A stretch of DNA of 64,000 nt from Fibrobacteria bacterium (GTDB taxonomy: Bacteria > Fibrobacterota > Fibrobacteria > UBA11236), in the NCBI GenBank assembly GCA_043745805.1, contig JAYTSD010000037.1, positions 32,001 to 96,000 on the forward strand, written 5' to 3'. Shown here in pieces: positions 27,564 through 45,967 of this stretch. The number at the start of each line of letters is the position of its first letter. The first letter of the stretch is position 1. The translations under genes were made by a program, and so were the position numbers. Under the pieces are notes generated by a model. It was not told where the DNA came from, made no database searches, and worked only from the letters and a program-made list of their open reading frames with translations.

Positions 27564-29945
27564 TTATTTGGATTGCAGGAGGTAAATACCTTTTGCAATA
27601 TCCTTTTTGCTTTCGCTCTGTGAAGGTTGAGCCGACAAAATTTTTCGTCCACCCATATCATAAACCGTCAGTGTTTTTGTGCGATTCCAATCTTTAGAAA
27701 TGTTGCCGCCCCAAAAACCAATTTCCACATTGTTTTTATTTTTCAATAATTTGTTACGTGGCAGTATAGAAATGCCTTTAATTGGGCCAGTTTTGGTGAC
27801 CTGTGCTTTGGCAGGAACATCCATACTGAATCCATCATTGAAGGTTACTGTAACCGGTGCGCTACTTGGATTATACGCCGTATAACTACGCACGGCAGCC
27901 TTATCAAAAACGGCATAGCTAGGAATACTAGCCGTTACTTGGGTATTTAATAATCCAACCGCTTGCAGGCTTTTTAAGAGATAATAAGTATGCGCTGGAG
28001 TTTCACCGGCTTCAGGATTTGTTCCTGTACCATAATTAGCCACTGCTTTGTCGGGATCGGCAAAGGCAAGGTATTCATAATAAATATCCTTCCAAGAGCC
28101 TCCTGGGAAACCTTCTTCATAGTTGGGTAGGATATGATCGGGACGACGGCCTATATATAATGATCCTGCGGCAATGGGAAAGAAATTAATGGCTTGAATT
28201 TGACTGGGGTTATTAGAAAACCAAGTCGCATAAGTACCCCCATTACTCCACACCATACCCACAGATTGATGCGTGAAGGCGGCTGGGAATACTTGTTTAT
28301 CCACATCCCACCAATATTGTTCAATGGCGCGCGTTTCATTCACATACATGAATATGCCCATGTCACGTAACATTTTATTACCCGTATTCATGCCATATAA
28401 TATAAGTGCGGCATTAAAATTCATGGACTCGGAAGAGGACTCTTGATTATTTCCATCATTTTCAAAACCAATACCATCCGCCCAACCATGTCCTTCATAG
28501 GCGTCGAAATATTTAAAGCGTGCGAACATGGGATCATTATCATCCCAGCTATTAACATCACGGATTAGCATTTCCACCATACCGCCCCAATTACTCGTCT
28601 TCACCCAATCGGGATCCCAAGCTGCAATGGTGGCTGCGGCCATCAGAAAATACCCATAATGAAAATGATGATCCGCCAAGCGATCATCGGAATGAAAAGA
28701 AGCCGGGTAGCCAATTAAAGTGCTAAAACCTTTGTAGAAATAAAGTTGTTGATTGCCGCCAGTAGTGAACCAGCTTTCCAATCCTTTTTCTAAGGCTTTT
28801 ACTAATTCGGTTCGTTTAGCGGTATTTCCTCTCCCTTCTAAAATGGGAATAAGCGCCGCTAATCTTCCAAATGATTTGCCACCACTGTAGGAGTCGCCGT
28901 CTCCAGCAGAAGTAGGAATTTGACTTAATAATTTATCGAGTTGTGTGGGATCGGCGCCTACATTTGGTAAAGCGGGGAGAATGCCATTAAAAGCCATGGT
29001 AGTAGAAAAAGAAGTTCCCGTAGCCACTTTCATTTCACCACGTGCGCTTTTGTAGGTGTAATTGGTAAGCGGGGTGCTTGCAGCCATCCATTGATGCCGT
29101 AACAAAGCAAATACAGTACCTTGCTCGGTACCTTCCTTAACCTCGGTAATTACCGAATAGTTAGAAACCAAATTGGCGGTTGCTTCCACATAACCCCAAG
29201 TGACAACGGTTTTTTTCACAAAGGAATAAGCATATTTTTTATAGAATTCTAATGCAGCGGGAGTGCCTTCGGGCAAAGCGGCGATGGATAAATAATCTTT
29301 ACCTGCTAAGGAAGAGCTGAGCGTGGTGGTTCCAGTCCAAGTCGATCCCGTAGGTGCGAAAATGCCAAAGGCTTTTCCACCAATGCTCACGCCGATAACA
29401 TTTCCTTGATTGGCAAATTGTGTAGCTCCGGCGCCAAGAGTGATAACTGCGTTTCCGCCGGTAACCTTGAAGTAAACAAAGGGTAAGCCATGACCAAAGG
29501 TTGCCTCCAGTGTTTTTCCTGCCCCTTGCCAGCGCGAGGTAACCGAAAAATGCGAATACGAAGCCACGCGCGCGGCGTCAGCTGTTAAACCTTCTATGCC
29601 CACGGTGACATTCGCATTGTGTAAGGCGGCGAATCCGTTTGCCGTTGCATAGCCTGGTACTCCAGGATAACCTATTTCTAATCCCTTAGCGGAAGCTCTC
29701 ATAGAAAGAGGGTGAGAAAACATATTTCCAGAAAATTGTGAAGTCATCAAAGTGCTCCACCAATTTGGCGAGGTAATGGGCTGAGTGAAATCGGGGGTGA
29801 CCCAAGCTTTTTCACCAGGCACTTTGGTGCCATCAGCGGTTAAATAATTTCCCAAACCTACTGTTGTTTGACCGAAGGAGTGGATTGTAAAAAAAGAGCT
29901 TAAAAGTAAAGCAAGTGCCATTGTGCTTTTGAACCCAGCACTCAT
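27564..29945 (-). CDS. Secreted GH81 endo-beta-1,3-glucanase with T9SS-like C-terminal domain
   Basis: DHHFHYGYF, FDAYEGHGWADG, GNNQESSSESMN, GMVWSNG, WF; signal peptide; tail VYDMGGRKI...GIYLL; start probably ATG 29945. Confidence 0.9.
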   Translation of the reverse strand: MSAGFKSTMALALLLSSFFTIHSFGQTTVGLGNYLTADGTKVPGEKAWVTPDFTQPITSPNWWSTLMTSQFSGNMFSHPLSMRASAKGLEIGYPGVPGYATANGFAALHNANVTVGIEGLTADAARVASYSHFSVTSRWQGAGKTLEATFGHGLPFVYFKVTGGNAVITLGAGATQFANQGNVIGVSIGGKAFGIFAPTGSTWTGTTTLSSSLAGKDYLSIAALPEGTPAALEFYKKYAYSFVKKTVVTWGYVEATANLVSNYSVITEVKEGTEQGTVFALLRHQWMAASTPLTNYTYKSARGEMKVATGTSFSTTMAFNGILPALPNVGADPTQLDKLLSQIPTSAGDGDSYSGGKSFGRLAALIPILEGRGNTAKRTELVKALEKGLESWFTTGGNQQLYFYKGFSTLIGYPASFHSDDRLADHHFHYGYFLMAAATIAAWDPDWVKTSNWGGMVEMLIRDVNSWDDNDPMFARFKYFDAYEGHGWADGIGFENDGNNQESSSESMNFNAALILYGMNTGNKMLRDMGIFMYVNETRAIEQYWWDVDKQVFPAAFTHQSVGMVWSNGGTYATWFSNNPSQIQAINFFPIAAGSLYIGRRPDHILPNYEEGFPGGSWKDIYYEYLAFADPDKAVANYGTGTNPEAGETPAHTYYLLKSLQAVGLLNTQVTASIPSYAVFDKAAVRSYTAYNPSSAPVTVTFNDGFSMDVPAKAQVTKTGPIKGISILPRNKLLKNKNNVEIGFWGGNISKDWNRTKTLTVYDMGGRKILSAQPSQSESKKDIAKGIYLLQSK

Positions 29946-30622
29946 TTTTTCCTGAGGGTTTTTATTTTTCACTGCTAATCTCCTTTGCCCGCAATATACC
30001 ACACGATATTTTTTTGTGCTTGAGGAATATATTTTTGAGGGTAAAATAATCATCAAGAATGTTTTTTAGCATCCGTATTTCAGGATGTTTTCGTAAATCA
30101 CATCAGTCATAGATTCATAGTATAGGGTGGAATGTTAAGAAGAAAAGCAGGTTTTTTATTATTGATCAAAGATAATGCTGAGACATTAAAATTTCGCCAA
30201 TCGAGAGGATATGGAATAATGTATTTGCAAGTTACTTGTAAAATTTAGGCCTATATAATCACAAAAAAATTTTAACTCTGCCCCAAAGGAGTTACCTGTC
30301 TATAAACCATCGAGCCAAAGCTTCATGTCTTTTGTTTGAGAATAATGCCCGGCAAAAAAATGTTCCATAACAATTTTTGTTTATCTTACCAGTATAAAAC
30401 ATGGAAATTCTAATTAAAAAACGATGTTTTTCTTTTTTTTAACAAGATTTTTTTTTAAAAGCGGATTAGATTGGGGCTTCTAGGGGGATAAGTTATTTAA
30501 GTCGTAATTTTCACTGATTTTTATTGTCAGGTAAAAAATAGATCGGTAGTCTGCTTCCCTATCAATTTTTTCAATTATTTAGGTTTAACCTTTTGGAAAT
30601 TTGTTCAAAGGTGGGTGTTCGA

Positions 30623-31972
30623 ATGTCAAAAGCCAAATTGTTGCGATTAGTCGCACTTGGTTTGCTAATAGCGTGTCCCAAAATGATTTTTTCATCAGGC
30701 ATTGAGCGCGATCCATTAAAAGCCACGGCAATTTTTGATAATGGCCAATTCGACGCGGAAGGATTTCAACAACGGGATATTCAGGGGATTCAAAGAACAA
30801 TTGTAAGCATGTTCCAATCGGTTACCATTGAAGAAAGATTGCGGTTAACAGTCGGGATTGGTGGCTTATTCTATTATCCTTGGCCTACAGAAAATATCCC
30901 TCACAAAAGAACCAGAAAATTTGCGACCGGAATTCGTGAAGCCGATGCTGTTGAACTATTAGGAGACATTTCTGACCCTTGGGGTAAACTTCAATTTGGC
31001 GCTTTTCCTTTCAAATACAATCCTGATGCCGCAAATTTGGGAGAGTATATGTATCGGTCGGGAGCTTATCCCAATTATATACAAACCGGCGGCGGTACTA
31101 TTACCGATGGTGGTGGGAGTATAATCAATTCCGCGCAAGTGCTAAATCAAGGCATAAATTTTGAGGTGAATACTTTTTCAATTAAGCATAATTTTTTGTT
31201 CACACTTGAGAGTTCGATCGAGCCAATTCACGATATAACAGCGGCTTATTTTTTCTCTTTTAAATTCCGCAATATTTTCGAAATCGGGGGCGGGAGTTTA
31301 TGGGGACATCTTATATCAAGTCGATCTTCTTATACTACACCGACAGGTCCAACAGTTATTGATCCTGGACGGAAACCATTAAATCGATATCAAGGCGATA
31401 GTGTGGTTTTTAGCGATACGGTGAAAAATTACTCCAACTATACTTTTAAAAACACAAAATTAATGGGTCGAGTTGCATTAAATCTTCGTGGAATATTTGA
31501 TTCCGAATTAATGGGTGCGGATGAAGGCAAAATATATGGAGAAGTTGCAGTATTAGGAATAAAGAATTATCCATTTTATTACACCAATGTATTTAGTCGT
31601 ACACCATTTATGTTTGGGTTCAATCTCCCCACTTTCAAATTGCTGGATAGATTGGCTATAGAGGGCGAATATCATCACTTGCAATTTGCAGATGATTTTG
31701 AAGAAGCTTATTCAAACGGTTTGCCGTTACCCCCATTGCCGCAGGGTGTATATGCTGAGGCCGTAGCCGCTCATAAAGACCCTTCTGAAAACCAAAGATG
31801 GAAATGGTCTATTTATGCTAAAAAAACCATTATGCCGGGTTTTGTTACCTATTTGCAAGTTGCCAGCGATCATATGCGCGGAATCAATTATGACAAGGCG
31901 CCGCAACCTGATTTAATTACCAAACAACCCAGCGATTGGTATTTCCTTTTCCGTATTGAGCTTGGCATTTAA
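30623..31972 (+). CDS. Uncharacterised putative outer-membrane beta-barrel protein, paralogue 1
   Basis: Signal-like N-terminus, amphipathic strands, C-terminal WYFLFRIELGI; shares motifs with 31984 and 35791. Confidence 0.65.
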   Translation: MSKAKLLRLVALGLLIACPKMIFSSGIERDPLKATAIFDNGQFDAEGFQQRDIQGIQRTIVSMFQSVTIEERLRLTVGIGGLFYYPWPTENIPHKRTRKFATGIREADAVELLGDISDPWGKLQFGAFPFKYNPDAANLGEYMYRSGAYPNYIQTGGGTITDGGGSIINSAQVLNQGINFEVNTFSIKHNFLFTLESSIEPIHDITAAYFFSFKFRNIFEIGGGSLWGHLISSRSSYTTPTGPTVIDPGRKPLNRYQGDSVVFSDTVKNYSNYTFKNTKLMGRVALNLRGIFDSELMGADEGKIYGEVAVLGIKNYPFYYTNVFSRTPFMFGFNLPTFKLLDRLAIEGEYHHLQFADDFEEAYSNGLPLPPLPQGVYAEAVAAHKDPSENQRWKWSIYAKKTIMPGFVTYLQVASDHMRGINYDKAPQPDLITKQPSDWYFLFRIELGI

Positions 31973-31983
31973 TCCAAAATAGG

Positions 31984-33333
31984 ATGGATATGAAAATGAT
32001 AAACAATAAATTAGTGAGTGCTTTTGGAATTGGCTGCATATTAGCCTTTGCCGCACAGGCCGAAGTAAAAGTTGATCGGGCTCCTTTACAAATCGCCACA
32101 AATATTGAATTGGGACAAATTGAAAATGGATATAATGGATTAAAAGCATACACTTATCATGGTCAGGTGATACAAAGATTTGGTGTATCGCTAAATCAAG
32201 TTGCGACTATTAATGATCGATTTACTGTTAAAGTTGGGGTCGGCGGCATGTTTTTTTATGTCTCGCCAGAAGAAAAAAGTTTAAGTTCTTCACGAACAAC
32301 TCAATTTGGGCCGGGTGTTGGCCAGGCGCAAGGGATTTACAAATTGGGTGAGTTAGATAGACCTTGGACTTTCCAATTTGGACTTTTCCCCTACAAATAC
32401 AATTCGGATGCCAAAAATTTAGGCGAGTATTTGTTACGCTCAGGAACCTATCCAGGTTATTTAATTACCGGTGGTTGGAATATTATCAATAGCGCAAGCT
32501 ATGTCGCCTCGGGGTTAAGAATCAATAAATCACTTTGGGATGGAAAAATTGAATTCGATGGAAACTTTTTTCTGGAAAGAGATCTTGAACCCTTATATGA
32601 TCTCAGTCCCAGTTTTTTGATAAACTTTAAACCCGCACCATTTTTCGAGTTTGGCGCAGGGGTTAAGTTTTCTCATTTTATTCCAGCTCATTATGCTAAG
32701 GATACTCCTTCGGATTTGGATAATCAAATTAGAAATGGACGGCTATTGAATGGTCAAACTGATTCCGTAATAGCACTCGAAGATAGCCTAAAATTACCCA
32801 TTTCCTATTACACCTTTGCGGGAACAAATTTAGATGGACATGTGTCTCTTAATTTCGGTTCACTATTCGAAAACGAATTAATTGGAAAAAATGATTTGAA
32901 ATTATATGCGGAAGTAGCGCTTCTTGGCGTGGAAAATTACCCTTATTTTTACGAAAAAAGAATAGCCCGTATGCCCATAATGGCAGGCTTAAATTTACCC
33001 ACTTTTAAGACTCTCGATTTATTATCGATTGAAATGGAATACAGACGATGGGATTTCGCAAATGATATTTTTCAAGCTTATGATTCTGCTCTTCCTATTT
33101 GGCTATCAGGGGATGAAGCTAAAAAATGGAATAAAAACGGTATAAAAAGCAGAAATTATAAATGGAGCATTTACGCAAAGAAAAAAATCACCGATGGAAT
33201 ATCTCTCTTTGCACAGGCTGCGAGTGATCATATGCGAACCTTACGGCAAGGTGATTTTACTCCTGAAAGAGATGAAATCACTCGCACACCAAGTCAATGG
33301 TATTATTTGTTGCGCTTGGAAATGGGAATTTAA
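31984..33333 (+). CDS. Uncharacterised putative outer-membrane beta-barrel protein, paralogue 2
   Basis: Signal peptide (AQA), GLFPYKYNSDAKNLGEYLLRSGTYPG, C-terminal WYYLLRLEMGI. Confidence 0.65.
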   Translation: MDMKMINNKLVSAFGIGCILAFAAQAEVKVDRAPLQIATNIELGQIENGYNGLKAYTYHGQVIQRFGVSLNQVATINDRFTVKVGVGGMFFYVSPEEKSLSSSRTTQFGPGVGQAQGIYKLGELDRPWTFQFGLFPYKYNSDAKNLGEYLLRSGTYPGYLITGGWNIINSASYVASGLRINKSLWDGKIEFDGNFFLERDLEPLYDLSPSFLINFKPAPFFEFGAGVKFSHFIPAHYAKDTPSDLDNQIRNGRLLNGQTDSVIALEDSLKLPISYYTFAGTNLDGHVSLNFGSLFENELIGKNDLKLYAEVALLGVENYPYFYEKRIARMPIMAGLNLPTFKTLDLLSIEMEYRRWDFANDIFQAYDSALPIWLSGDEAKKWNKNGIKSRNYKWSIYAKKKITDGISLFAQAASDHMRTLRQGDFTPERDEITRTPSQWYYLLRLEMGI

Positions 33334-33388
33334 AAATGAATTTAAGAAGAACATTGTTCAAAAAAATATTTTGTAAAATGGGAGAGTT

Positions 33389-34015
33389 ATGAAAAAGGTT
33401 TGGATATTTTCGTTTTTATTTTTTGCCTATGCAAACTCCTTTGGAGGAGTAGCAAGCAATTTCGGTTTCGGTTTGAATTATTCCGGAACAAACTTTAAGG
33501 ATAATGATTCAGTTGGTAAGCATTCAGAGCCTTGTTTATCGGGCCAAATGGGGTACGATTATATTATCGGAGAATCTTTTTCTTTGGGTATCGCCTTAGG
33601 GTTAGAAACAAGTGGGGAAAATAGAAACTCGATATCAAGAGCGGGTAAATCCGATGCGAACCCCATTCCTGCAACTATTCGCTTAGGGTATTTGCGGCTT
33701 CCAATTTATGCCAAGTATATGCTTAACTTCGATAAAATTGGTATTCAAGGGGTCGGTGGTTTCGTGGTTTCGAAAAATGTGAATGCTGATTTTACATCAC
33801 CTGATACTTCATTCAAGAAAAACACGCTTATTGTAAATAAATATGATTATGGTTTAGAAGGTGGTTTCGTTTTCCACTTATTTTTCAATAAGTCCGATTC
33901 TTTTTACTTAAACCCTCTCTATTATTATGGATTAACTAAAGTGATGAAGGATGAGGGTCAGTCGGCACTGAGAAATTTCAAAATACATATTGGGTTTTCT
34001 AAACTAATATTATAG
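33389..34015 (+). CDS. Small outer-membrane beta-barrel protein (porin/PorT-like)
   Basis: Signal peptide, FGFGLNYS, LGYLRLPIYAKY, DYGLEGG, YYYGLT, terminal strand FKIHIGFS. Confidence 0.7.
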   Translation: MKKVWIFSFLFFAYANSFGGVASNFGFGLNYSGTNFKDNDSVGKHSEPCLSGQMGYDYIIGESFSLGIALGLETSGENRNSISRAGKSDANPIPATIRLGYLRLPIYAKYMLNFDKIGIQGVGGFVVSKNVNADFTSPDTSFKKNTLIVNKYDYGLEGGFVFHLFFNKSDSFYLNPLYYYGLTKVMKDEGQSALRNFKIHIGFSKLIL

Positions 34016-34317
34016 CTAATAAATTTATTAGTCGTGATTGTTGGTTGAAATAGATGAAACTCTCTAAAAATAGTTAGAACATTGCATTTATTTTGAGTTT
34101 ACGGCTGTTTTTTTAGAATCTAAAATATCGATACTTATTACTCTCCTGATACTATGATTTTTCCTTTAAAAGTAAAAATCATAGTTTTGACGCTAAATTT
34201 CCCTTAAAATTGTATTAAAAAGGCGAGATTTATATTAAAAATAAAAAATTAGAACGCGAGAAAATAGATACGACGGTATATATGAATATTGAAATTCAAT
34301 TTTTTTGGGGATTAATT

Positions 34318-35388
34318 ATGATTTTAAAACGTCTGATCACTGGGGCCATATTTGGGTGCCTTTCTTTAAGCACCGTAGCACATTCTGCTTTAAACAATGT
34401 TTTGATTTACGCTTATGCGGCAGGTTTTCCGCATAATCAAGGGATTCCTGATGCTGATTCATTAATCGTTAAGCAAGGTAAACTTTATAATTATACGGTG
34501 ACCGTAACTACTGACGTCAATTATATGACTTATACGAACATGAAGAAGTACGATCTTATTATTTTCAATAATACTACTGGAGCAGTACTCCCTAGCGCAA
34601 CCAATCAAGCAGATTTTATAAAATATATGAATGAAGGCGGTGGCTATTTAGGTTTCCATGGCGCTATGGATCATAAGGATTATTGGCAATGGTATACCGA
34701 CCAAGGCGTTAGTTTCAACGGCCATACGGGCGCTGATGCAATGGTAAAGCTCGACACAAATAAGGCTGTAAATAAGCCTGAATATGAAGACATAGTAAAA
34801 ATATTTCCCAAGATACCTTGGATGTGGAGAGAAGAATGGTATTCTTTCAAACAAAATCCACGAAGAAATTCCGATATTATTTTAACCGTTGACGAAAAAA
34901 CTTTTGTAAATGCACCAATAGACCCAAAACAAGTAATGGTCGATCATCCTGTAGCTTGGGCGCATAGGTTACCCGCTTTACCTGGGTCTAAAAAACAAGG
35001 CCATTATTTTTATACAGCTATTGGTCATGGCGGCTATGGTAAATGTTTCAAAACTGAAATATATGTCAATGAATTCGTATATCAAGCCATGCGTTGGGCT
35101 GCTGGAGAAAAAGATTCCATAGGCCCAGTTAGAATTAACCCTTCAAGGTTTTTGAATACATATAAAACGGATGCCATTTCTGCTGTTCCAGGGCAATTGG
35201 ACGTAGCCGTTTCGGATTTGGGAATCCATAAAGTCGATGTTATAAATATGCAGGGACAGCGCGTTAATGGCGCACAAGGTAACGGTCCAAGTACCCATAT
35301 TTTTACGAATTTAAATCATGAATCGGTTTATCTCGTACGAATTTACACTACTAAAAAGACTACTACGAAAAGAATTTTTATACAGTAA
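34318..35388 (+). CDS. Secreted ThuA-domain protein with T9SS-like C-terminal domain, paralogue 1
   Basis: Signal peptide (AHS), GFPH, FNNTTG, GGYLGFHGA, EEWYSF..NPR, DHPVAW, FYTAIGH, AMRWAA; tail INMQGQRV...VYLVRI. Confidence 0.82.
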   Translation: MILKRLITGAIFGCLSLSTVAHSALNNVLIYAYAAGFPHNQGIPDADSLIVKQGKLYNYTVTVTTDVNYMTYTNMKKYDLIIFNNTTGAVLPSATNQADFIKYMNEGGGYLGFHGAMDHKDYWQWYTDQGVSFNGHTGADAMVKLDTNKAVNKPEYEDIVKIFPKIPWMWREEWYSFKQNPRRNSDIILTVDEKTFVNAPIDPKQVMVDHPVAWAHRLPALPGSKKQGHYFYTAIGHGGYGKCFKTEIYVNEFVYQAMRWAAGEKDSIGPVRINPSRFLNTYKTDAISAVPGQLDVAVSDLGIHKVDVINMQGQRVNGAQGNGPSTHIFTNLNHESVYLVRIYTTKKTTTKRIFIQ

Positions 35389-35620
35389 GCCTTTCATCTT
35401 TAAAACCATGAGCTTAATGATTTGCCCATGGTTTTTATATTTTAAGCATTTTTTTATCCATTAAAAATCAGCTCTGATAATCTAATGCAAGGTGGTTTCG
35501 TCGAGTATGGTATGCCCCTAGGAGCAGATAAATTTCTAAGCCTCGATCAATTAAGATTTTAAACGGCTACAGCAAAATTTTTAACTGTCTAAGAAAAACC
35601 AGAATAAAACGCAAATAGGC

Positions 35621-35648
35621 TTGACGTTGGTTTTTTTGAAGCTAGATT
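35621..35648 (+). promoter_or_regulatory. Sigma70-like promoter upstream of barrel paralogue 3
   Basis: TTGACG-16 bp-TAGATT. Confidence 0.35.
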
Positions 35649-35790
35649 ATTGCCACAAAGATCTAAGAGAGAACTAAACTCAATATTCCCACTTAGTTTT
35701 TTTAAAAAATTGCAGAAGCAGTGACTAATTTTACTGTTGAATTAGCAAGCAAGAACCAATTTTAAAAACCACCCCTAACTAGGAGTCTAA

Positions 35791-37197
35791 ATGTTAAAGA
35801 ATTCTCTTATTTCTTATGGACTAATATTATCATTAGTCTGTGGCATTACTTTATCGCATGCTGATGAAGATACCATTAAACCTAAGCCTATGAAAATGTC
35901 CGCATCCGTGGACGCTGGACAAATAGTTAAGGGTTATGATGTTGAAACCTCTAAGGAGTATAAATTTCAAACCATTCAAAAAACCAATTTTTGGATTAGT
36001 CAAGAAGCAGTGATTAACGATCATGCAGAAGTAAAAATGGGCGTGTTTGGTACACTGTTTTATGTTCTTCCTGAGGTACAAGGTGCATCACATACTCGTT
36101 TGCCAAAATTTGTAATGTTTCCATCCAATGCTTCTCTCGCCTATCACTTTGGTGAACCCACTAATCCAATTTTAGATTTGCAGGTTGGACTTTTTCCTTT
36201 GAAGTATAATCCCGAAGCTTCGAATTTAGGGGAATACTTACTTCGCTCGGGAACTTATCCTGGATACTTAGTAACAGGTGGCTTTAATCAAGTCAATAGC
36301 GCCGGCTACCTTGTACAAGGCATGGGTCTTACCTTAAATCTGTGGGATGGAAAATTCAAAAATAATTTTTTATTGCCCATGGAAAGAAATTTTGCGCCAA
36401 TGCATAGCATTTCTCCTACTTGGATCACTACACTTAAATCTTCTCCTGCTTTTGAATTTGGGGCAGGTGTTTCTTGCAATCATTGCATCTCGGTAAAACC
36501 AAGCAATGAAAAAAATGGAATATACGAAAATGTTTCGCCTGACTATATGAAATGGCCTGGATCTATAATTACAGAAGTTCATATTCAAGATACAGCTAAT
36601 AAAGCGGATACAGTTCCGACTTTTGTTCACCGCGACACTACGAAGTTTTACACTTTCCAAGGCATTAAATTAATGGGTAGATTTACTTTTGATCCAAAGG
36701 CATATATTCAATCCGATCTATTTAATGCACCCGACTTGAAAATTTTTGCAGAAATAGCTGTTTTGGGTGTAAAGAATTATCCTTACTATTTCCCGGACAT
36801 CAAAAGAAGAATGCCTATTATGTTTGGTATGAATTTGCCTACGTTTAAGGCTTTAGATCTTTTATCGGTTCAAGGCGAATATTATAATTCTCTTTTCCCA
36901 AATGACATTAGTGGTTTGTTCGAATTTCAACGACCATATTGGACAATTCCAAATAATAATCCTGCTACAGACGGACCTGGCACTAAAGTCTGGGATGATT
37001 ATGTTGCTAAATTTTCTAAGTGGAAATGGTCGGTGTTAGCGAAAAAAGATCTTTCCAAAGCGAGTCGAGTATGGCTTCAAGTCGCGAATGATCATTTTCG
37101 CACCTCTGACTACAATATCAAGCCATCAACAACCGCAGTTACCAAGGGAAAAAGTGATTGGTACTATTTGTTTCGCTTAGAAATGGGTATTTTTTAA
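35791..37197 (+). CDS. Uncharacterised putative outer-membrane beta-barrel protein, paralogue 3
   Basis: AGGAG RBS, signal peptide (SHA), GLFPLKYNPEASNLGEYLLRSGTYPG, C-terminal WYYLFRLEMGIF ending in Phe. Confidence 0.65.
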   Translation: MLKNSLISYGLILSLVCGITLSHADEDTIKPKPMKMSASVDAGQIVKGYDVETSKEYKFQTIQKTNFWISQEAVINDHAEVKMGVFGTLFYVLPEVQGASHTRLPKFVMFPSNASLAYHFGEPTNPILDLQVGLFPLKYNPEASNLGEYLLRSGTYPGYLVTGGFNQVNSAGYLVQGMGLTLNLWDGKFKNNFLLPMERNFAPMHSISPTWITTLKSSPAFEFGAGVSCNHCISVKPSNEKNGIYENVSPDYMKWPGSIITEVHIQDTANKADTVPTFVHRDTTKFYTFQGIKLMGRFTFDPKAYIQSDLFNAPDLKIFAEIAVLGVKNYPYYFPDIKRRMPIMFGMNLPTFKALDLLSVQGEYYNSLFPNDISGLFEFQRPYWTIPNNNPATDGPGTKVWDDYVAKFSKWKWSVLAKKDLSKASRVWLQVANDHFRTSDYNIKPSTTAVTKGKSDWYYLFRLEMGIF

Positions 37198-37233
37198 GCT
37201 CAATTAACGCTAAAAATAACGTTGTTTATTATT

Positions 37234-37259
37234 AAAAGGAGGGATAACCCTCCTTTTTT
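37234..37259 (+). terminator. Intrinsic terminator
   Basis: AAAAGGAGGG-ataa-CCCTCCTTTTTT. Confidence 0.85.
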
Positions 37260-37519
37260 ATTTTGGTAAAATCAATAATTAATTTGCTTAAAAGACATGA
37301 TATTAAGACGTCAAAGTTATAGCGATACTTCTAGTTACAGTTACATTTCTAATGTGTACTTAATGGTTCGGTCATTTAAGCTTAACCTAAATAAAATCAA
37401 CACTTTCGAAGTAATTATTGTTTTAAAAACGTTCAGCTAAATTAAAAGGCTAGCCGTATATTAAATAAAAAATTGGATGTTCGTGGGAGCAGCCATCACT
37501 TTTAGCATATGAGGGATAA

Positions 37520-38596
37520 ATGAAAAATAAGTTTACCGAAACTTTATCTAGCAAAAAAATAGGACTTGCTCTGTCCTTAATTCTTTTAGGAGCATCTTTG
37601 GTAATGTCGCAAACCGCACCTAAATATAAAATATTGGATTTTAATGGAGTAGGTGGATTTCCTCATGATAGTCGTCCAGCAGCAAGTACTTTGCTCGATT
37701 CCTTAGGTAAAGCATTGAATATTCAAGTAGATCATTCCGCCCTAGCCTCTGTATTTACCGATGCCAACCTGGCGCAATATAAGGTGCTGATTATCAACAA
37801 TTCCACGGAATTAGGTAAAATCGCCACTACCGTTGAACAAAAAGCAGCCATCATAAAATTTATGAAATCCAATGGCTATTTAGGTTTTCATGGCGCAGGC
37901 GATACCAAGGTTTCCTTTCCTGAATACACAACTTATTTAGGTGGTGAATTAAGCACGCATGGTGGTGGCAACGCTACATTAAATTTGGATACTTCCAATT
38001 ATGCCAAAAATATCAGCTTCATTAATAAAGGATTATTGCCTCAATATATACTTGGTGGTGAATGGTATGCCTATAAAACAAATCCTCGTTTAGCTCCAGG
38101 GATTCAAATTTTATATGGCATGGATGAAAGCAGCTGCTCAGGTTGTGTAAAAATGGCCACTCCTGATCATCCCATAGCATGGGTGCATATCGAACCCGTA
38201 ACAGGTGGCCGTGCTTTTTATATGGCTATGGGGCATGAAAAGTCGGTATTTACTAATTACAAATGGATTAAGCAAATGGTGTCGAATGCACTTAAATGGG
38301 CTGCTCGTGAACCTGGAACCGAGGAAGTTGTTGGACCAGTTTCCGTACGTCAAACTGTTTTGCCAGGCAATAATAACTTCTTGGTTAAATCACAAAACGC
38401 TGCTTTAACTGTGGAGACCACGGAAAAAGGTGCTCATACATTTGAACTATTAACCTTGGATGGTAAGCGCGTGGGTTCACATAAAGGTGTAAATAGCGAA
38501 AGTTATACTTTCACCAATCTTCGCTCCAGTACAGTATACTCTGTGGTTTCTTATACCAAAAAAGGCAAAGAATCTCACTTAGTTACAGTGCAATAA
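37520..38596 (+). CDS. Secreted ThuA-domain protein with T9SS-like C-terminal domain, paralogue 2
   Basis: Signal peptide, GFPH, NNST, GYLGFHGA, EWYAYKTNPR, DHPIAW, FYMAMGH, ALKWAA; tail LTLDGKRV...VYSVV. Confidence 0.82.
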   Translation: MKNKFTETLSSKKIGLALSLILLGASLVMSQTAPKYKILDFNGVGGFPHDSRPAASTLLDSLGKALNIQVDHSALASVFTDANLAQYKVLIINNSTELGKIATTVEQKAAIIKFMKSNGYLGFHGAGDTKVSFPEYTTYLGGELSTHGGGNATLNLDTSNYAKNISFINKGLLPQYILGGEWYAYKTNPRLAPGIQILYGMDESSCSGCVKMATPDHPIAWVHIEPVTGGRAFYMAMGHEKSVFTNYKWIKQMVSNALKWAAREPGTEEVVGPVSVRQTVLPGNNNFLVKSQNAALTVETTEKGAHTFELLTLDGKRVGSHKGVNSESYTFTNLRSSTVYSVVSYTKKGKESHLVTVQ

Positions 38597-38615
38597 GAAA
38601 TTTTTTAAAATCGAC

Positions 38616-38652
38616 AAAAAAAGATGCGGGTCAAATGGCCCGCATCTTTTTT
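38616..38652 (+). terminator. Intrinsic terminator
   Basis: A-run-GATGCGGG-tcaaatgg-CCCGCATC-T6. Confidence 0.85.
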
Positions 38653-38671
38653 ATTATATAAGAAAAATAAT

Positions 38672-40762
38672 ATGCATAAATCAAACGGAAAAATATGGAT
38701 TAATTTGGCTCTTGTTTTAGGAGGGCCACTTTTTTTCCTCTTATTTTTAGAGGTCGTTCTTTGGTTTGTCGGAGTGAAGCCTCTTTATCTTTCCGAAGAT
38801 CCCTTTGTAGGGTTTGCTTCGGGACAGCCGCTTTGTGTTTTACAAAACCGCACTATAGGGGGTAATGTATACGTTACCAATCCTGCTAAAATCTCGCATT
38901 TTAATTGGCAAAGCTTTCCGCAAAAGAAAGCGGCCGGTACCTATAGAATTTTTACCGTAGGCGGCTCTACCACTTATGGGCATCCCTATCATGATCCCAC
39001 TTCTTATAGTGGATGGTTGCGTGAGTTGCTGCCTGTTGCCGATCCTAGCCGAAAATGGGAAGTAATCAATGCGGGTGGAATAAGTTATGCGAGTTATCGC
39101 GAAGCGAAATTGATGGAGGAATTAATTGAATACAAACCGGATTTATTTGTGGTATATAGTGGTCACAATGAATTTTTAGAAGAACGTACCTATAGAAAAA
39201 CAGTCAAGTTACCGGCATTTATTCGCGAAACTAGTGCTTTACTGGATAAAACCAGAACCTATACAGTATTAAGAATATTAATACATAAATTAATGGGAAA
39301 ATCGGACATTAAAAAAAACAAAACACCTACACTTGCTTCCGAAGTGGATGATGTTTTAGCAAAAACCATAGGGCCAACATCCTATACCCGAAATGATACC
39401 TTGCATACCGAGGTGTTGGAGCATTTTAATAATTCCTTGGAACGCATGGCGCGGTTGGCGCATTCGGTGGGAGCAGAAATTATTTTTGTGACCACTCCTT
39501 CGAATGAAAAAGACTGTTCCCCTTTTAAAAGCGAAGTAACAAACGGATTGACATCTGCTGAGATTGAAAAAGTAAATGTCTATTTGCAGCAAGCGCATAC
39601 ATTGATACAAGCTAGTCAAAAAGAGTTGGCCTTAGTGCAATATGCGAATGCATTAAGTATCGATAATCGCAATGCGGATATTTATTATGCAGCAGGCAAA
39701 TTAGCCTTTGAGCTAAAACAAGGTAAGGTAGCCAAAAAGTATTTTCAAAAAGCTTTGGAGGAAGATATTTGCCCTCTACGCGCCTCACCTCGTATGGCGG
39801 AAATGATTAAGCAGATTGCAATAACAACGCATTCGCGCAGTTTGGATTTTGTGGACACTTTGGAAAAACAAATGCAAATGCAATATCAGCATAATTGTTT
39901 GGGCGAGCCGGATTTTCTCGATCATGTGCATTTAGATATTCCTGATTATAAACATTTAGCTTTAGGCTTGATGGATGAATTGATACGTATGAATGTTTTG
40001 CATACACAAAAAACATGGGGAAAAGAATCTATTGATCAGGTGGATAAAAAAATTATGAACCAAGTTGATACGCGAGAGCAGGGCATAGCTTTACATAATT
40101 TAGCGAAGGTGATTAATTGGGCCGGTAAACATGAGGATGCCGCGGTGATTGCGGAAAAGGCCTTAGCAAAGGACAGTACTAGTTTGGAAGCGATTTGGGG
40201 ATCCTTATTTGTAGGTGCAGCGCGCGAACGCGAAGGGAAAGAAACGGAAGCTATTATTCATTATTCGCGAGCGGTAAAATTAGATTCTAATAATCCCAAA
40301 TCGCGAGGTTTTTTGGCGGGGGCTTTAATGCGTTCTGGAAAAAATACGGAAGCAACGCAACAATTATCTGCGGCCTTAGAATTAGAACCAAACAATCCGG
40401 AAACCCAAGCGGAACTGGGGCAACTTTATTTGGGTTTAGGAAAATATGCAGAAGCGGCTGAACATTTAGCATTGGCGGTGGAAAAATTACCACTACGTCC
40501 AGATTATCATTATGCTTATGCGGTAGCTTTACTGAAGAGCAATCAAATAATGAGAGCAGAAGCGGAGTTCCGGCAAACTTTAGCTTTAAATCCTAAAGCA
40601 GCACAAGCCTTGGTAGGATTGGGATTGATTGCCAAAAATCAGGGTAACATGGGTGTTGCTATTCAATATTTTGCACAAGCTTTGCAAATGCAGCCGGACT
40701 TAGTAGAAGCGCAGAACGCTTTAAGTCAAAGCTTGGGCGGCATGTCGGGAATGAAACCTTAA
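38672..40762 (+). CDS. Membrane-anchored SGNH-like domain + TPR protein
   Basis: One N-terminal TM; RIFTVGGSTTYG, EVINAGGISYAS, YSGHNEF, FLDHVH; many C-terminal TPRs; start moved to ATG 38672, after the terminator. Confidence 0.78.
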   Translation: MHKSNGKIWINLALVLGGPLFFLLFLEVVLWFVGVKPLYLSEDPFVGFASGQPLCVLQNRTIGGNVYVTNPAKISHFNWQSFPQKKAAGTYRIFTVGGSTTYGHPYHDPTSYSGWLRELLPVADPSRKWEVINAGGISYASYREAKLMEELIEYKPDLFVVYSGHNEFLEERTYRKTVKLPAFIRETSALLDKTRTYTVLRILIHKLMGKSDIKKNKTPTLASEVDDVLAKTIGPTSYTRNDTLHTEVLEHFNNSLERMARLAHSVGAEIIFVTTPSNEKDCSPFKSEVTNGLTSAEIEKVNVYLQQAHTLIQASQKELALVQYANALSIDNRNADIYYAAGKLAFELKQGKVAKKYFQKALEEDICPLRASPRMAEMIKQIAITTHSRSLDFVDTLEKQMQMQYQHNCLGEPDFLDHVHLDIPDYKHLALGLMDELIRMNVLHTQKTWGKESIDQVDKKIMNQVDTREQGIALHNLAKVINWAGKHEDAAVIAEKALAKDSTSLEAIWGSLFVGAAREREGKETEAIIHYSRAVKLDSNNPKSRGFLAGALMRSGKNTEATQQLSAALELEPNNPETQAELGQLYLGLGKYAEAAEHLALAVEKLPLRPDYHYAYAVALLKSNQIMRAEAEFRQTLALNPKAAQALVGLGLIAKNQGNMGVAIQYFAQALQMQPDLVEAQNALSQSLGGMSGMKP

Positions 40763-44698: not shown

Positions 44699-45967
44699 TT
44701 AGAGTATTTTGTATTGCAAACCTAAGGCGAGAATGAAAGTATTCTTTCTTAAGGTAACATCCCCTATATTGGGAATCGTAGTTTTATCTTCAAAATAAAA
44801 TCCATTTCCAAAACCAAAATTGATATTCACTTTAGCCGTAGGATGATATGCGAAACCACTGGCAACAGTGCATCCATTTAAACCTGGATTTTCAGGGGAA
44901 TAGGATTCGGGTTTAGCTCCAGTGCTATAGTAAAGAATGCCCGTACTTAAAGCCCATTGTGGGTGAACTTGTGCTTCTAAGGCGAGTCCAGATTCCCAGC
45001 CATCATTATGCTTGTCTTCAGCTCCACCCCAATCAGAAATTTTATTCATGAAATAATTAAAGGATAAATCAGTGCGCCAAATAGGATTGAATTGATAACC
45101 CAAACCTAAACCAATTTCGGGAGGAATATCATGATTGAATTTGGATCCCTTGGTTTTTAAGGATTGGCGTAATAGACCTAGATAAGGAACCCTATTTGGA
45201 TTGCTAGCCAATTCTGTTTCAAAATTCAAATCACTTTTATCAACTTCATATTCCATTTTCACAATAGTTTCAAAACGTAACCCAATAGTTAAGGCTTCGG
45301 AAGGAGTAATATTAATACCAAAAGCGCCACCCCATCCAGAAGCAGATTCTTTATGATCGATAGCTTTGGTGGCTCCGTTGCTTAACGGTTTTCCCGCATC
45401 CACTTCAATGGTGGTTTGCGCATAAACGTATTTTAAGCTCGCAGCAATGGAATACATTTTATTAATAGCATAAGCTCCACCTAAGGATGGGGCTATTGAA
45501 GTTATCGCTAACTTTACATCGGTAGTGTAATCGGGATCACGTGCTAATAAAGCGCTTCTTAAAAGACCGGTTGACACAGTACCCTCTTGATAATCCAAAT
45601 TTCCACCGCCAATAGGAAACGTGAGCGTAGAGAATATGGACCAGTCATCATGCTTGAACACAATAAAACCTGTTGGCAAAATGAAACTGGTTAAATCGGA
45701 TTTATAGGACGGTTGATTAGGAGCAATTTGGCGATTGAATTTTATTAATGTTTGATTATTCGCATTAACATAAAGTCCATCTTCCAGTTTCATGACACCT
45801 GCGGGATTATATATAGCCGCATCGGCGCTATTGGTAGCGGCATTGCGACTTACTGTGCGAATATATTCGGCACTAAAATTGGTGCGATTGTCTACCGCGC
45901 CACCCATAACCAAATGTGCGGCCAAGCCAATAAACATTGAGGCAAAAGCATATAGTTTGGTTTTCAT
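44699..45967 (-). CDS. FadL/OmpP1-like outer-membrane transporter
   Basis: Signal peptide, RNAAT..ADAAIYNPAG hatch motif, GGG, terminal LGLQYKI. Confidence 0.75.
   Translation of the reverse strand: MKTKLYAFASMFIGLAAHLVMGGAVDNRTNFSAEYIRTVSRNAATNSADAAIYNPAGVMKLEDGLYVNANNQTLIKFNRQIAPNQPSYKSDLTSFILPTGFIVFKHDDWSIFSTLTFPIGGGNLDYQEGTVSTGLLRSALLARDPDYTTDVKLAITSIAPSLGGAYAINKMYSIAASLKYVYAQTTIEVDAGKPLSNGATKAIDHKESASGWGGAFGINITPSEALTIGLRFETIVKMEYEVDKSDLNFETELASNPNRVPYLGLLRQSLKTKGSKFNHDIPPEIGLGLGYQFNPIWRTDLSFNYFMNKISDWGGAEDKHNDGWESGLALEAQVHPQWALSTGILYYSTGAKPESYSPENPGLNGCTVASGFAYHPTAKVNINFGFGNGFYFEDKTTIPNIGDVTLRKNTFILALGLQYKIL

Follow-up and report, generated by a model that had tools for sequence, protein, structure and literature searches.

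What is the role of outer-membrane barrel proteins that belong to no described family and whose genes are twice followed by a gene for a secreted ThuA protein? The question is raised by a seven-gene locus in a 64,000-nucleotide stretch of DNA, hereafter the window, from a Fibrobacteria bacterium (GenBank assembly GCA_043745805.1, contig JAYTSD010000037.1, positions 32,001 to 96,000), which encodes a GH81 beta-1,3-glucanase-type protein, three porin-like barrels (barrel-1 to barrel-3), a small outer-membrane protein (small OMP) and two ThuA-domain proteins (ThuA-1 and ThuA-2). A preliminary description of this DNA had taken the seven genes for a glycan-utilisation locus with GH81 as a part of it. 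We find that the locus is two copies of a self-contained barrel/ThuA module situated among housekeeping genes, and not a glycan-utilisation locus centred on GH81. As to function, we assign a probability of roughly 0.5 to the reading that the barrels are a set of substrate-specific porins, coupled to a partner that is exposed at the cell surface and processes carbohydrate.

The pairing of barrel and ThuA is a genuine module, widely conserved and self-contained. We compared 75 loci with flanks of up to 10 kb from 33 other Fibrobacterota metagenome-assembled genomes (MAGs), with open reading frames (ORFs) called by a procedure of our own that gives priority to ORFs matched by hidden Markov models (HMMs) of the barrels, of ThuA and DUF1080 and of several neighbouring families. 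These loci hold 82 barrel arrays, 66 of them with both flanks visible, and 51 of the 66 (77%, which is not an unbiased phylum-wide rate) lie directly beside a ThuA gene, with 5 more beside a DUF1080 gene. The synteny proposed from a single locus is found beyond this genome, and barrel-ThuA adjacency occurs in 30 of the 33 MAGs. The ThuA gene lies downstream on the same strand in 33 of the 51 arrays, upstream on the same strand in 12 and upstream in divergent orientation in 6. The commonest unit is barrel-barrel-ThuA on a single strand, beside which barrel-ThuA, ThuA-barrel(-barrel) and three barrels with ThuA after them occur as variants. Spacing within the units is tight and operon-like, with a median barrel-to-barrel gap of 10.5 nt (70 of 70 at 100 nt or less) and a median barrel-to-ThuA gap of 34.5 nt (30 of 40 at 100 nt or less). 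Five of the contigs with typical Fibrobacteria modules (L035, L036, L040, L043, L048) carry MAG labels of the type “uncultured Bifidobacterium/Bifidobacteriales”, and these bin labels are probably wrong.

Within the genome of the window the pairing is far beyond chance, because there are only four ThuA genes in 3.9 Mb and two of these flank the window barrels. The other two ThuA genes (C44:28594-29259 and C45:39180-39830) are not beside barrels, and one of them sits in a 1007-aa open frame and may encode a multidomain protein.

The barrel family of this genome comprises 12 members in four clusters of three, and the clusters outside the window reveal a second type of partner. Each of them (L013-L015, at C20:25751-31681, C4:174635-180392 and C46:62402-67814) consists of three tandem barrels with a secreted protein of about 400 aa encoded ahead of them on the same strand, which matches PF06439 (DUF1080, “3-keto-disaccharide hydrolase”) at 1e-4 to 1e-8 in this genome and at 6e-19 to 6e-24 elsewhere. 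One of the three in-genome DUF1080 partners carries a type IX secretion system (T9SS) tail. A tree of the 12 barrels places the window trio in one clade (100/100), separate from the nine DUF1080-linked paralogues, and in a FastTree phylogeny of 153 barrels, the topology of which was not bootstrapped, a deep split with a support of 99 divides a DUF1080-linked clade (42 rows) from a ThuA-linked clade (111 rows). Partner type thus co-varies with barrel clade. Since the first and second barrels of pairs form sister clades within several subclades, the pairs are old and have retained their order. In the modules of L016-L020, position 1 is orthologous to barrel-1 and position 2 to barrel-2; barrel-3 has its nearest relatives in single barrels after which a CBM6-like secreted protein is encoded. 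Elsewhere the DUF1080-type cluster runs from a large Ig-repeat protein through DUF1080 to three barrels, and in six loci (L068, L073, L077-L080) it continues into an SBP_bac_1/8 binding protein, two permeases and an ATPase, i.e., an ABC importer of the carbohydrate uptake transporter 1 (CUT1) type. The Ig-repeat protein is a giant secreted one (1076-1717 aa; Big_2, Big_13, PKD) in L070, L076 and L078-L080, and together with the DUF1080/three-barrel unit and the ABC importer it makes up a long one-strand cluster.

Genome searches were carried out within this phylum, on 151 sampled Fibrobacterota genomes, and the barrels occur in at least 58 and ThuA in 37 of them. Both are present in all 11 searched genomes of the window's own family, and both are absent from all 56 genomes of the largest sampled family of the same class.

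The barrels themselves belong to an undescribed, lineage-specific family for which a 16-stranded porin fold is supported by structure prediction. The three window barrels are paralogues of about 450 aa, 35-39% identical with some 110 invariant columns, and none matches a Pfam or NCBIfam model at E up to 0.01. Among 40 members of the family there is no match to the Pfam porin families (Porin_1, Porin_4, Porin_5, OprB, Porin_O_P and others) at E up to 1, nor does the family find a PDB sequence at that threshold, all of which agrees with the lineage-specific, undescribed status proposed earlier. A search of 5.8 billion proteins recovered 812 relatives, and the 120 matches listed show no Pfam domain, the few that are named being “hypothetical protein” from Fibrobacteres/Fibrobacteria MAGs; when 1.84 billion representatives were searched with a profile, 957 clusters (50% identity) lay at E up to 1e-3, 839 of them at 1e-10 or below. 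In the ESM Atlas, porin clusters appear for the barrel only at a feature score of 0.93. We found no description of the barrel family or of the barrel-ThuA module in titles and abstract openings of the literature, subscription journals and supplements being outside the scope of that search.

The AlphaFold2 (AF2) model of barrel-2, built from a 40-sequence alignment (predicted local distance difference test, pLDDT, 86.9; predicted template modelling score, pTM, 0.85), is a 16-stranded beta-barrel in which antiparallel strands of 6 or more residues are joined by long loops and short turns in alternation, the arrangement of classical porins. In Foldseek, OmpM1 and OmpF/OmpC-type porins come out on top, and exhaustive structural comparison gives OmpM1 (Z 19.6), the Vibrio chitoporin VhChiP (19.1), Omp-Pst1 (18.9), DcaP (18.8), OprP and OprB (18.5 each) and, further down, maltoporin (13.5). 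The loop between strands 5 and 6, at the position of the classical L3, has 35 residues with a short helix and 5 aromatic residues, and at 3.6 bits per column it is the best-conserved segment of the family.

The partner proteins are secreted members of a known domain family. Both window proteins score above the PF06283 gathering threshold of 33.4 bits (Table 1), as 59 of the 62 full-length ThuA partners in the other loci match Pfam ThuA. The tail of ThuA-1 matches the T9SS type A sorting domain (TIGR04183) with 28.4 bits against a cut-off of 23, and ThuA-2, which has no direct match to a sorting-domain model in NCBIfam, aligns with ThuA-1 over the whole length, the tail as well, at 1e-39. The same sorting domain (E up to 0.01) is found on 49 of the 62 full-length partners, in keeping with the suggestion that proteins bearing a C-terminal domain (CTD) are part of the system, and the ThuA-partner profile, in its C-terminal part, hits sorting domains of gingipains in the PDB. 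The export machinery is present in the genome as well, with SprA at 456 bits (over the cut-off), a PorU-like gene at 409 (cut-off 420) and a PorV-like gene at 89 (cut-off 250).

Against the PDB, the ThuA-partner profile finds 4jqs (3e-35) and 4e5v (1e-16). Because the partners keep the His, Glu-Trp-Tyr and Gly-His motifs of the family (complete in 4jqs and partial in 4e5v in the hmmsearch alignments), we suggest that they have an active site rather than acting as a mere scaffold; the conserved His, Glu and His are H124, E181 and H239 in the numbering of ThuA-2. Published work ties both partner families to periplasmic 3-keto-glycoside catabolism: ThuAB is reported as a 3-ketoglycoside dehydrogenase of the periplasm and the DUF1080 protein BT2157 as acting on 3-keto-trehalose (PMC8121099), and members of DUF1080 as 3-keto-glucoside 1,2-lyases and glucal hydratases (bioRxiv 10.1101/2024.03.25.586180). 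A predicted complex of barrel-3 (residues 25-468) with ThuA-2 (31-358), each with its alignment, scored 0.00 in both runs, which weighs neither for nor against binding.

These observations can be arranged into the following mechanism. The barrels would act as diffusion channels of a classical-porin-like type, and the tandem paralogues probably cooperate, either as mixed oligomers or as channels of different specificity. The ThuA partner would be exported by the T9SS to the cell surface, where it may bind or convert a carbohydrate or glycoside, and the product of this step would enter through the dedicated porins, possibly with physical contact between barrel and partner. Barrels of the sister clade would do likewise with DUF1080 proteins, members of the 3-keto-glycoside lyase/hydratase family, and in some genomes the CUT1-type importer downstream would complete the uptake route. 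Sugar import by the barrels is plausible because they have a porin fold and because barrels of the sister clade share operons with CUT1 ABC importers, and the conserved loop at the eyelet position, the carbohydrate-related optional neighbours and the published tie of both partner families to 3-keto-glycoside catabolism add support to the reading as a whole; to this extent the oligosaccharide import of the preliminary description stands, without the central place that it gave to GH81. A more elaborate version, in which a hetero-oligomeric porin of position-specific paralogues docks the ThuA or DUF1080 enzyme via its sorting domain and so couples surface 3-keto-glycoside-type chemistry to import, is offered tentatively and seems rather unlikely to us. 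If true, it would amount to a TonB-independent and SusCD-independent counterpart of the polysaccharide utilisation locus (PUL) in environmental Fibrobacterota, and to a previously unknown outer-membrane machine for nutrient acquisition.

Several points weigh against the substrate-specific porin set. The chemistry known for ThuA and DUF1080 takes place in the periplasm, but an enzyme exported by the T9SS works outside the cell. In one family barrels are common (26 of 39 genomes) yet Pfam-detectable ThuA is rare (3 of 39), a pattern that fits the existence of a non-ThuA barrel clade, and 10 of the 66 fully visible arrays lie beside neither ThuA nor DUF1080. Gfo/Idh/MocA is not a conserved neighbour: in a survey of 124 immediate-flank ORFs, drawn at random from 139 with those above 1200 aa left out, it is absent, like a thuEFGK-type ABC transporter, from the 25 commonest families. 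HupE/UreJ-like membrane proteins near ThuA (one member scanned, HupE_UreJ_2 PF13795 at 2e-47) could mean that the solute is not a sugar, and hint at a link to a metal or something else of a non-sugar kind. The module of the window is loosened, with gaps of 266-402 nt and a hairpin that separates barrel-3 from ThuA-2. Finally, the gene calls are simple, and two peptide motifs, drawn mostly from the ThuA-linked clade, served to retrieve the loci, with several loci per MAG and non-independence among kin, which limits how the proportion of ThuA-adjacent arrays may be read.

The main rival holds that the barrels are outer-membrane anchors or docking partners of T9SS cargo, which keep the ThuA or DUF1080 protein on the cell surface through its C-terminal domain and import no solute. 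Precedents exist, since PorQ holds PorZ, PorV holds PorU, and PorP/SprF-type barrels serve neighbouring cargo genes. The sorting domain on most ThuA partners, the match between partner type and barrel clade, and the SprA, PorU-like and PorV-like genes of the genome are all in line with such a role, as is the fact that the partners differ in their catalytic domain (ThuA, DUF1080, CBM6-like) and have secretion in common. However, the fold is far nearer to the 16-stranded diffusion porins (Z 18-19.6) than to FadL-type barrels, the PorV/PorQ class (Z about 9-10), and the NCBIfam models of PorV, PorQ and PorP do not match the barrels at E up to 0.01. Strongest conservation at the L3-position loop is what would be expected of a channel eyelet, and the continuation of the DUF1080 type into ABC importers likewise speaks for transport. 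We therefore regard a pure anchor as unlikely, though it deserves serious consideration.

We consider it more doubtful still that the barrels are the general porin set of these lineages, with ThuA and DUF1080 sharing envelope operons without any substrate coupling. The 12 copies in this genome and the up to 14 barrel matches per genome in relatives would suit such a set, as would the lack of any other classical porin family above cut-off, for which a single model (Porin_4) was tried, and flanks that are mostly housekeeping genes. However, 56 of 66 arrays adjoin ThuA or DUF1080, a much tighter linkage than would be expected of housekeeping porins, and the deep clade split follows partner type. 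A general porin would also be expected in the large same-class family, in all 56 genomes of which barrels and ThuA are jointly not found.

The view of the locus as GH81-centred, in which the barrels import laminari-oligosaccharides released by GH81 from beta-1,3-glucan, is largely refuted by synteny and seems very improbable. GH81 is secreted, has a weak T9SS tail (TIGR04183 at 16.7 bits, under the cut-off) and is divergent from barrel-1 over a 536-nt spacer, and a porin fold is compatible with oligosaccharide uptake. Against this, there is no GH81 homologue among all ORFs of the 75 related loci, GH81 occurs in 5 of 16 genomes of the window's family (this genome counted) vs. 12 of 12 for the barrels, and the four loci in three relatives that carry a GH81 58-61% identical to that of the window (12-20 kb fetched) all lack barrel, ThuA and DUF1080 genes. 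The enrichment of carbohydrate-active enzymes (CAZymes) anticipated beside the barrels is not seen, with no glycoside hydrolase family in the 25 commonest of the flank survey. Because GH81 is missing from the related loci and the flanks are without CAZyme enrichment, the module is self-contained and the adjacency of GH81 in the window incidental, GH81 being outside the conserved module. The four long spacers of the window share only AT-rich 9-mers and no longer common motif, and direct repeats within 29900-38700 are the paralogous coding regions themselves; a 15-nt AT-rich match 29 nt 5' of the ThuA-1 start and 43 nt 5' of the ThuA-2 start was considered as a shared motif and judged to be chance. 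Export of polysaccharide by the barrels in the manner of AlgE, Wzi or PelB is the least probable reading and can hardly be entertained, as AlgE and Wzi (Z 15-16) and PelBC are among the structural matches (Z 13-16 overall) but score below the diffusion porins, and polysaccharide synthase and export genes are not among the conserved neighbours.

Having weighed these alternatives against the substrate-specific porin set, we turn to the genes of the window itself (Table 1). The seven genes proposed earlier are borne out by ORFs and Pfam, and the barrel-then-ThuA order does occur twice, once with the small OMP in between: the first unit comprises barrel-1, barrel-2, the inserted small OMP and ThuA-1, and the second barrel-3 and ThuA-2. 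The small OMP has no homologue among the ORFs of the related loci and is an insertion, not a conserved member of the module. Signal peptides had been claimed for all seven products, and judged by eye all seven N-termini do have a basic n-region, a hydrophobic core and a small-residue cleavage motif, provided that GH81 and barrel-1 start at an internal Met (near 29945 and 30623, respectively). From this internal Met, the signal sequence of barrel-1 (30623-30680) ends in a lipobox-like L-I-A-C that the other two barrels do not have. The terminators that had been placed between genes are present after barrel-3 and ThuA-2; no terminator-like hairpin was seen between barrel-1, barrel-2 and the small OMP, which are separated by 11 and 55 nt.

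Table 1. Genes and hairpins of the barrel/ThuA locus, in window coordinates.
Feature	Position	Strand	Description
GH81 beta-1,3-glucanase-type gene	27564..30056	-	Pfam Glyco_hydro81C PF17652, 6e-51, 174 bits; weak T9SS tail; divergent from barrel-1
barrel-1, porin-like outer-membrane barrel	30593..31972	+	family profile E 4e-155; ThuA-associated clade; position-1 orthologue
barrel-2, porin-like outer-membrane barrel	31984..33333	+	16 strands in AF2 model; orthologue of position 2 in barrel-barrel-ThuA
small OMP	33389..34015	+	Pfam OMP_b-brl_2 PF13568, 1.6e-8; between barrel-2 and ThuA-1
ThuA-1	34282..35388	+	signal peptide; ThuA domain residues 39-273 (PF06283, 4e-37, 128.8 bits); T9SS type A C-terminal sorting domain
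barrel-3, porin-like barrel	35791..37197	+	other subclade within ThuA-associated clade
terminator-like GC hairpin and T tract	37234..37257	+	directly 3' of barrel-3; 10 pairs, 5 GC
ThuA-2	37520..38596	+	signal peptide; ThuA domain residues 37-261 (1e-32, 114.3 bits); tail homologous to ThuA-1 sorting domain
palindromic terminator-like hairpin	38617..38652	.	3' of ThuA-2; 14 pairs

The surroundings of the locus are of a housekeeping kind upstream (formyltransferase, RsmB, FKBP), and downstream lie a GDSL/TPR protein and a carbamoyltransferase. As had been stated, no TonB-dependent receptor, SusD or ABC transporter is found among the seven locus genes, the two downstream and the five upstream (21893-49830); the six Plug-domain genes of the genome are all on other contigs. 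Nor was a ThuB-type Gfo/Idh/MocA oxidoreductase or a thuEFGK-like ABC transporter found among the window genes scanned. The downstream GDSL/TPR gene (38624-40762) starts 27 nt past ThuA-2 and encodes 712 aa with a GDSL-like N-terminal part and C-terminal TPR repeats; it was considered as a recurrent module neighbour and set aside, its likeness to the TPR genes that follow modules in L022, L025, L056 and L063 being confined to the repeats. About 6 kb downstream, a gene on the minus strand (44699-45967) encodes a FadL/Toluene_X-type outer-membrane protein (PF03349, 2e-12) that is unrelated to the barrel family.

In the flanks of the modules from other genomes, the commonest families are AAA/ClpB, SBP_bac_8 (5), TPR (4) and DUF1080 (4). 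Recurrent clusters are either housekeeping or other genes (ClpB, IMPDH, acetolactate synthase, ABC-F ATPase, sigma-54 regulator) or carbohydrate-related and putative sugar-dehydrogenase genes (GSDH, DUF7133, malectin, CBM6-like), and GSDH and DUF7133 propellers lie within two genes of modules in L022, L025, L041, L082 and L090. A secreted family of about 590 aa (575-637 aa) with a T9SS-type tail and weak similarity to DUF7133/SGL beta-propellers is encoded next to ThuA in six loci (L037, L054, L055, L056, L063, L075), and a membrane protein of about 200-400 aa beside ThuA or within two genes of it in seven (L021, L029, L030, L046, L048, L052, L077). An apparent family of Arg/Gly/Ala/His-rich ORFs near modules turned out to be antisense ORFs over barrel genes in GC-rich MAGs.

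These results bear on how sugars cross the outer membrane of Fibrobacterota, of which little is understood, and on what ThuA does biochemically, and the gene context of the barrel family gives that family a function that can be tested. Two enzyme families of the 3-keto-glycoside pathway, ThuA and DUF1080, are linked here to dedicated outer-membrane channels and to type IX secretion, and the barrel-ThuA module offers clear targets for electrophysiology and enzyme assays. The work also defines a sizeable family that has no Pfam or NCBIfam model, and corrects a view of the locus that was built on GH81.

It is also useful to set the module beside known systems. With ThuA of the rhizobial thuEFGKAB trehalose/sucrose system and the structural-genomics ThuA-like proteins 4jqs and 4e5v it has the ThuA domain in common; unlike rhizobial ThuA, the partner here carries a signal peptide and a T9SS sorting domain and is accompanied by porin-like barrels, with no adjacent ThuB-type Gfo/Idh/MocA. 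The sister-clade partners share PF06439 with the DUF1080/3-keto-disaccharide hydrolase proteins (BT2157; 3-keto-glucoside lyase, glucal hydratase), but they are secreted (one with a T9SS tail) and encoded ahead of three barrels rather than in a dehydrogenase/isomerase operon. An outer-membrane barrel gene beside the gene of a sorting-domain protein is also seen in T9SS pairs (PorQ-PorZ, PorV-PorU, and PorP/SprF with SprB-type cargo), from which the present family differs in having a 16-strand porin rather than a FadL-like barrel and in not matching the T9SS barrel models by sequence. The sorting domain of the partners here is of type A, whereas the cargo of PorP/SprF-type barrels is of type B.

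The SusC/SusD PULs are conceptually alike, in that an outer-membrane channel is combined with a surface-exposed, carbohydrate-handling protein; here there is no TonB-dependent receptor or SusD, the channel would be a passive one of the porin type, and the partner is T9SS-secreted instead of a lipoprotein. Substrate-specific porins such as VhChiP, Pseudomonas OprB and Acinetobacter DcaP resemble the barrels in their 16 strands, long extracellular loops and long loop after strand 5 (Z 18.5-19.1), and are likewise encoded next to carbohydrate-pathway genes, the DUF1080-type barrels also next to an ABC importer. The barrels differ from them in having no detectable sequence relationship (Pfam and PDB, E up to 1), in occurring as order-kept tandem sets of 2-3 paralogues, and in having as their fixed partner a T9SS-secreted protein rather than a periplasmic binding protein.

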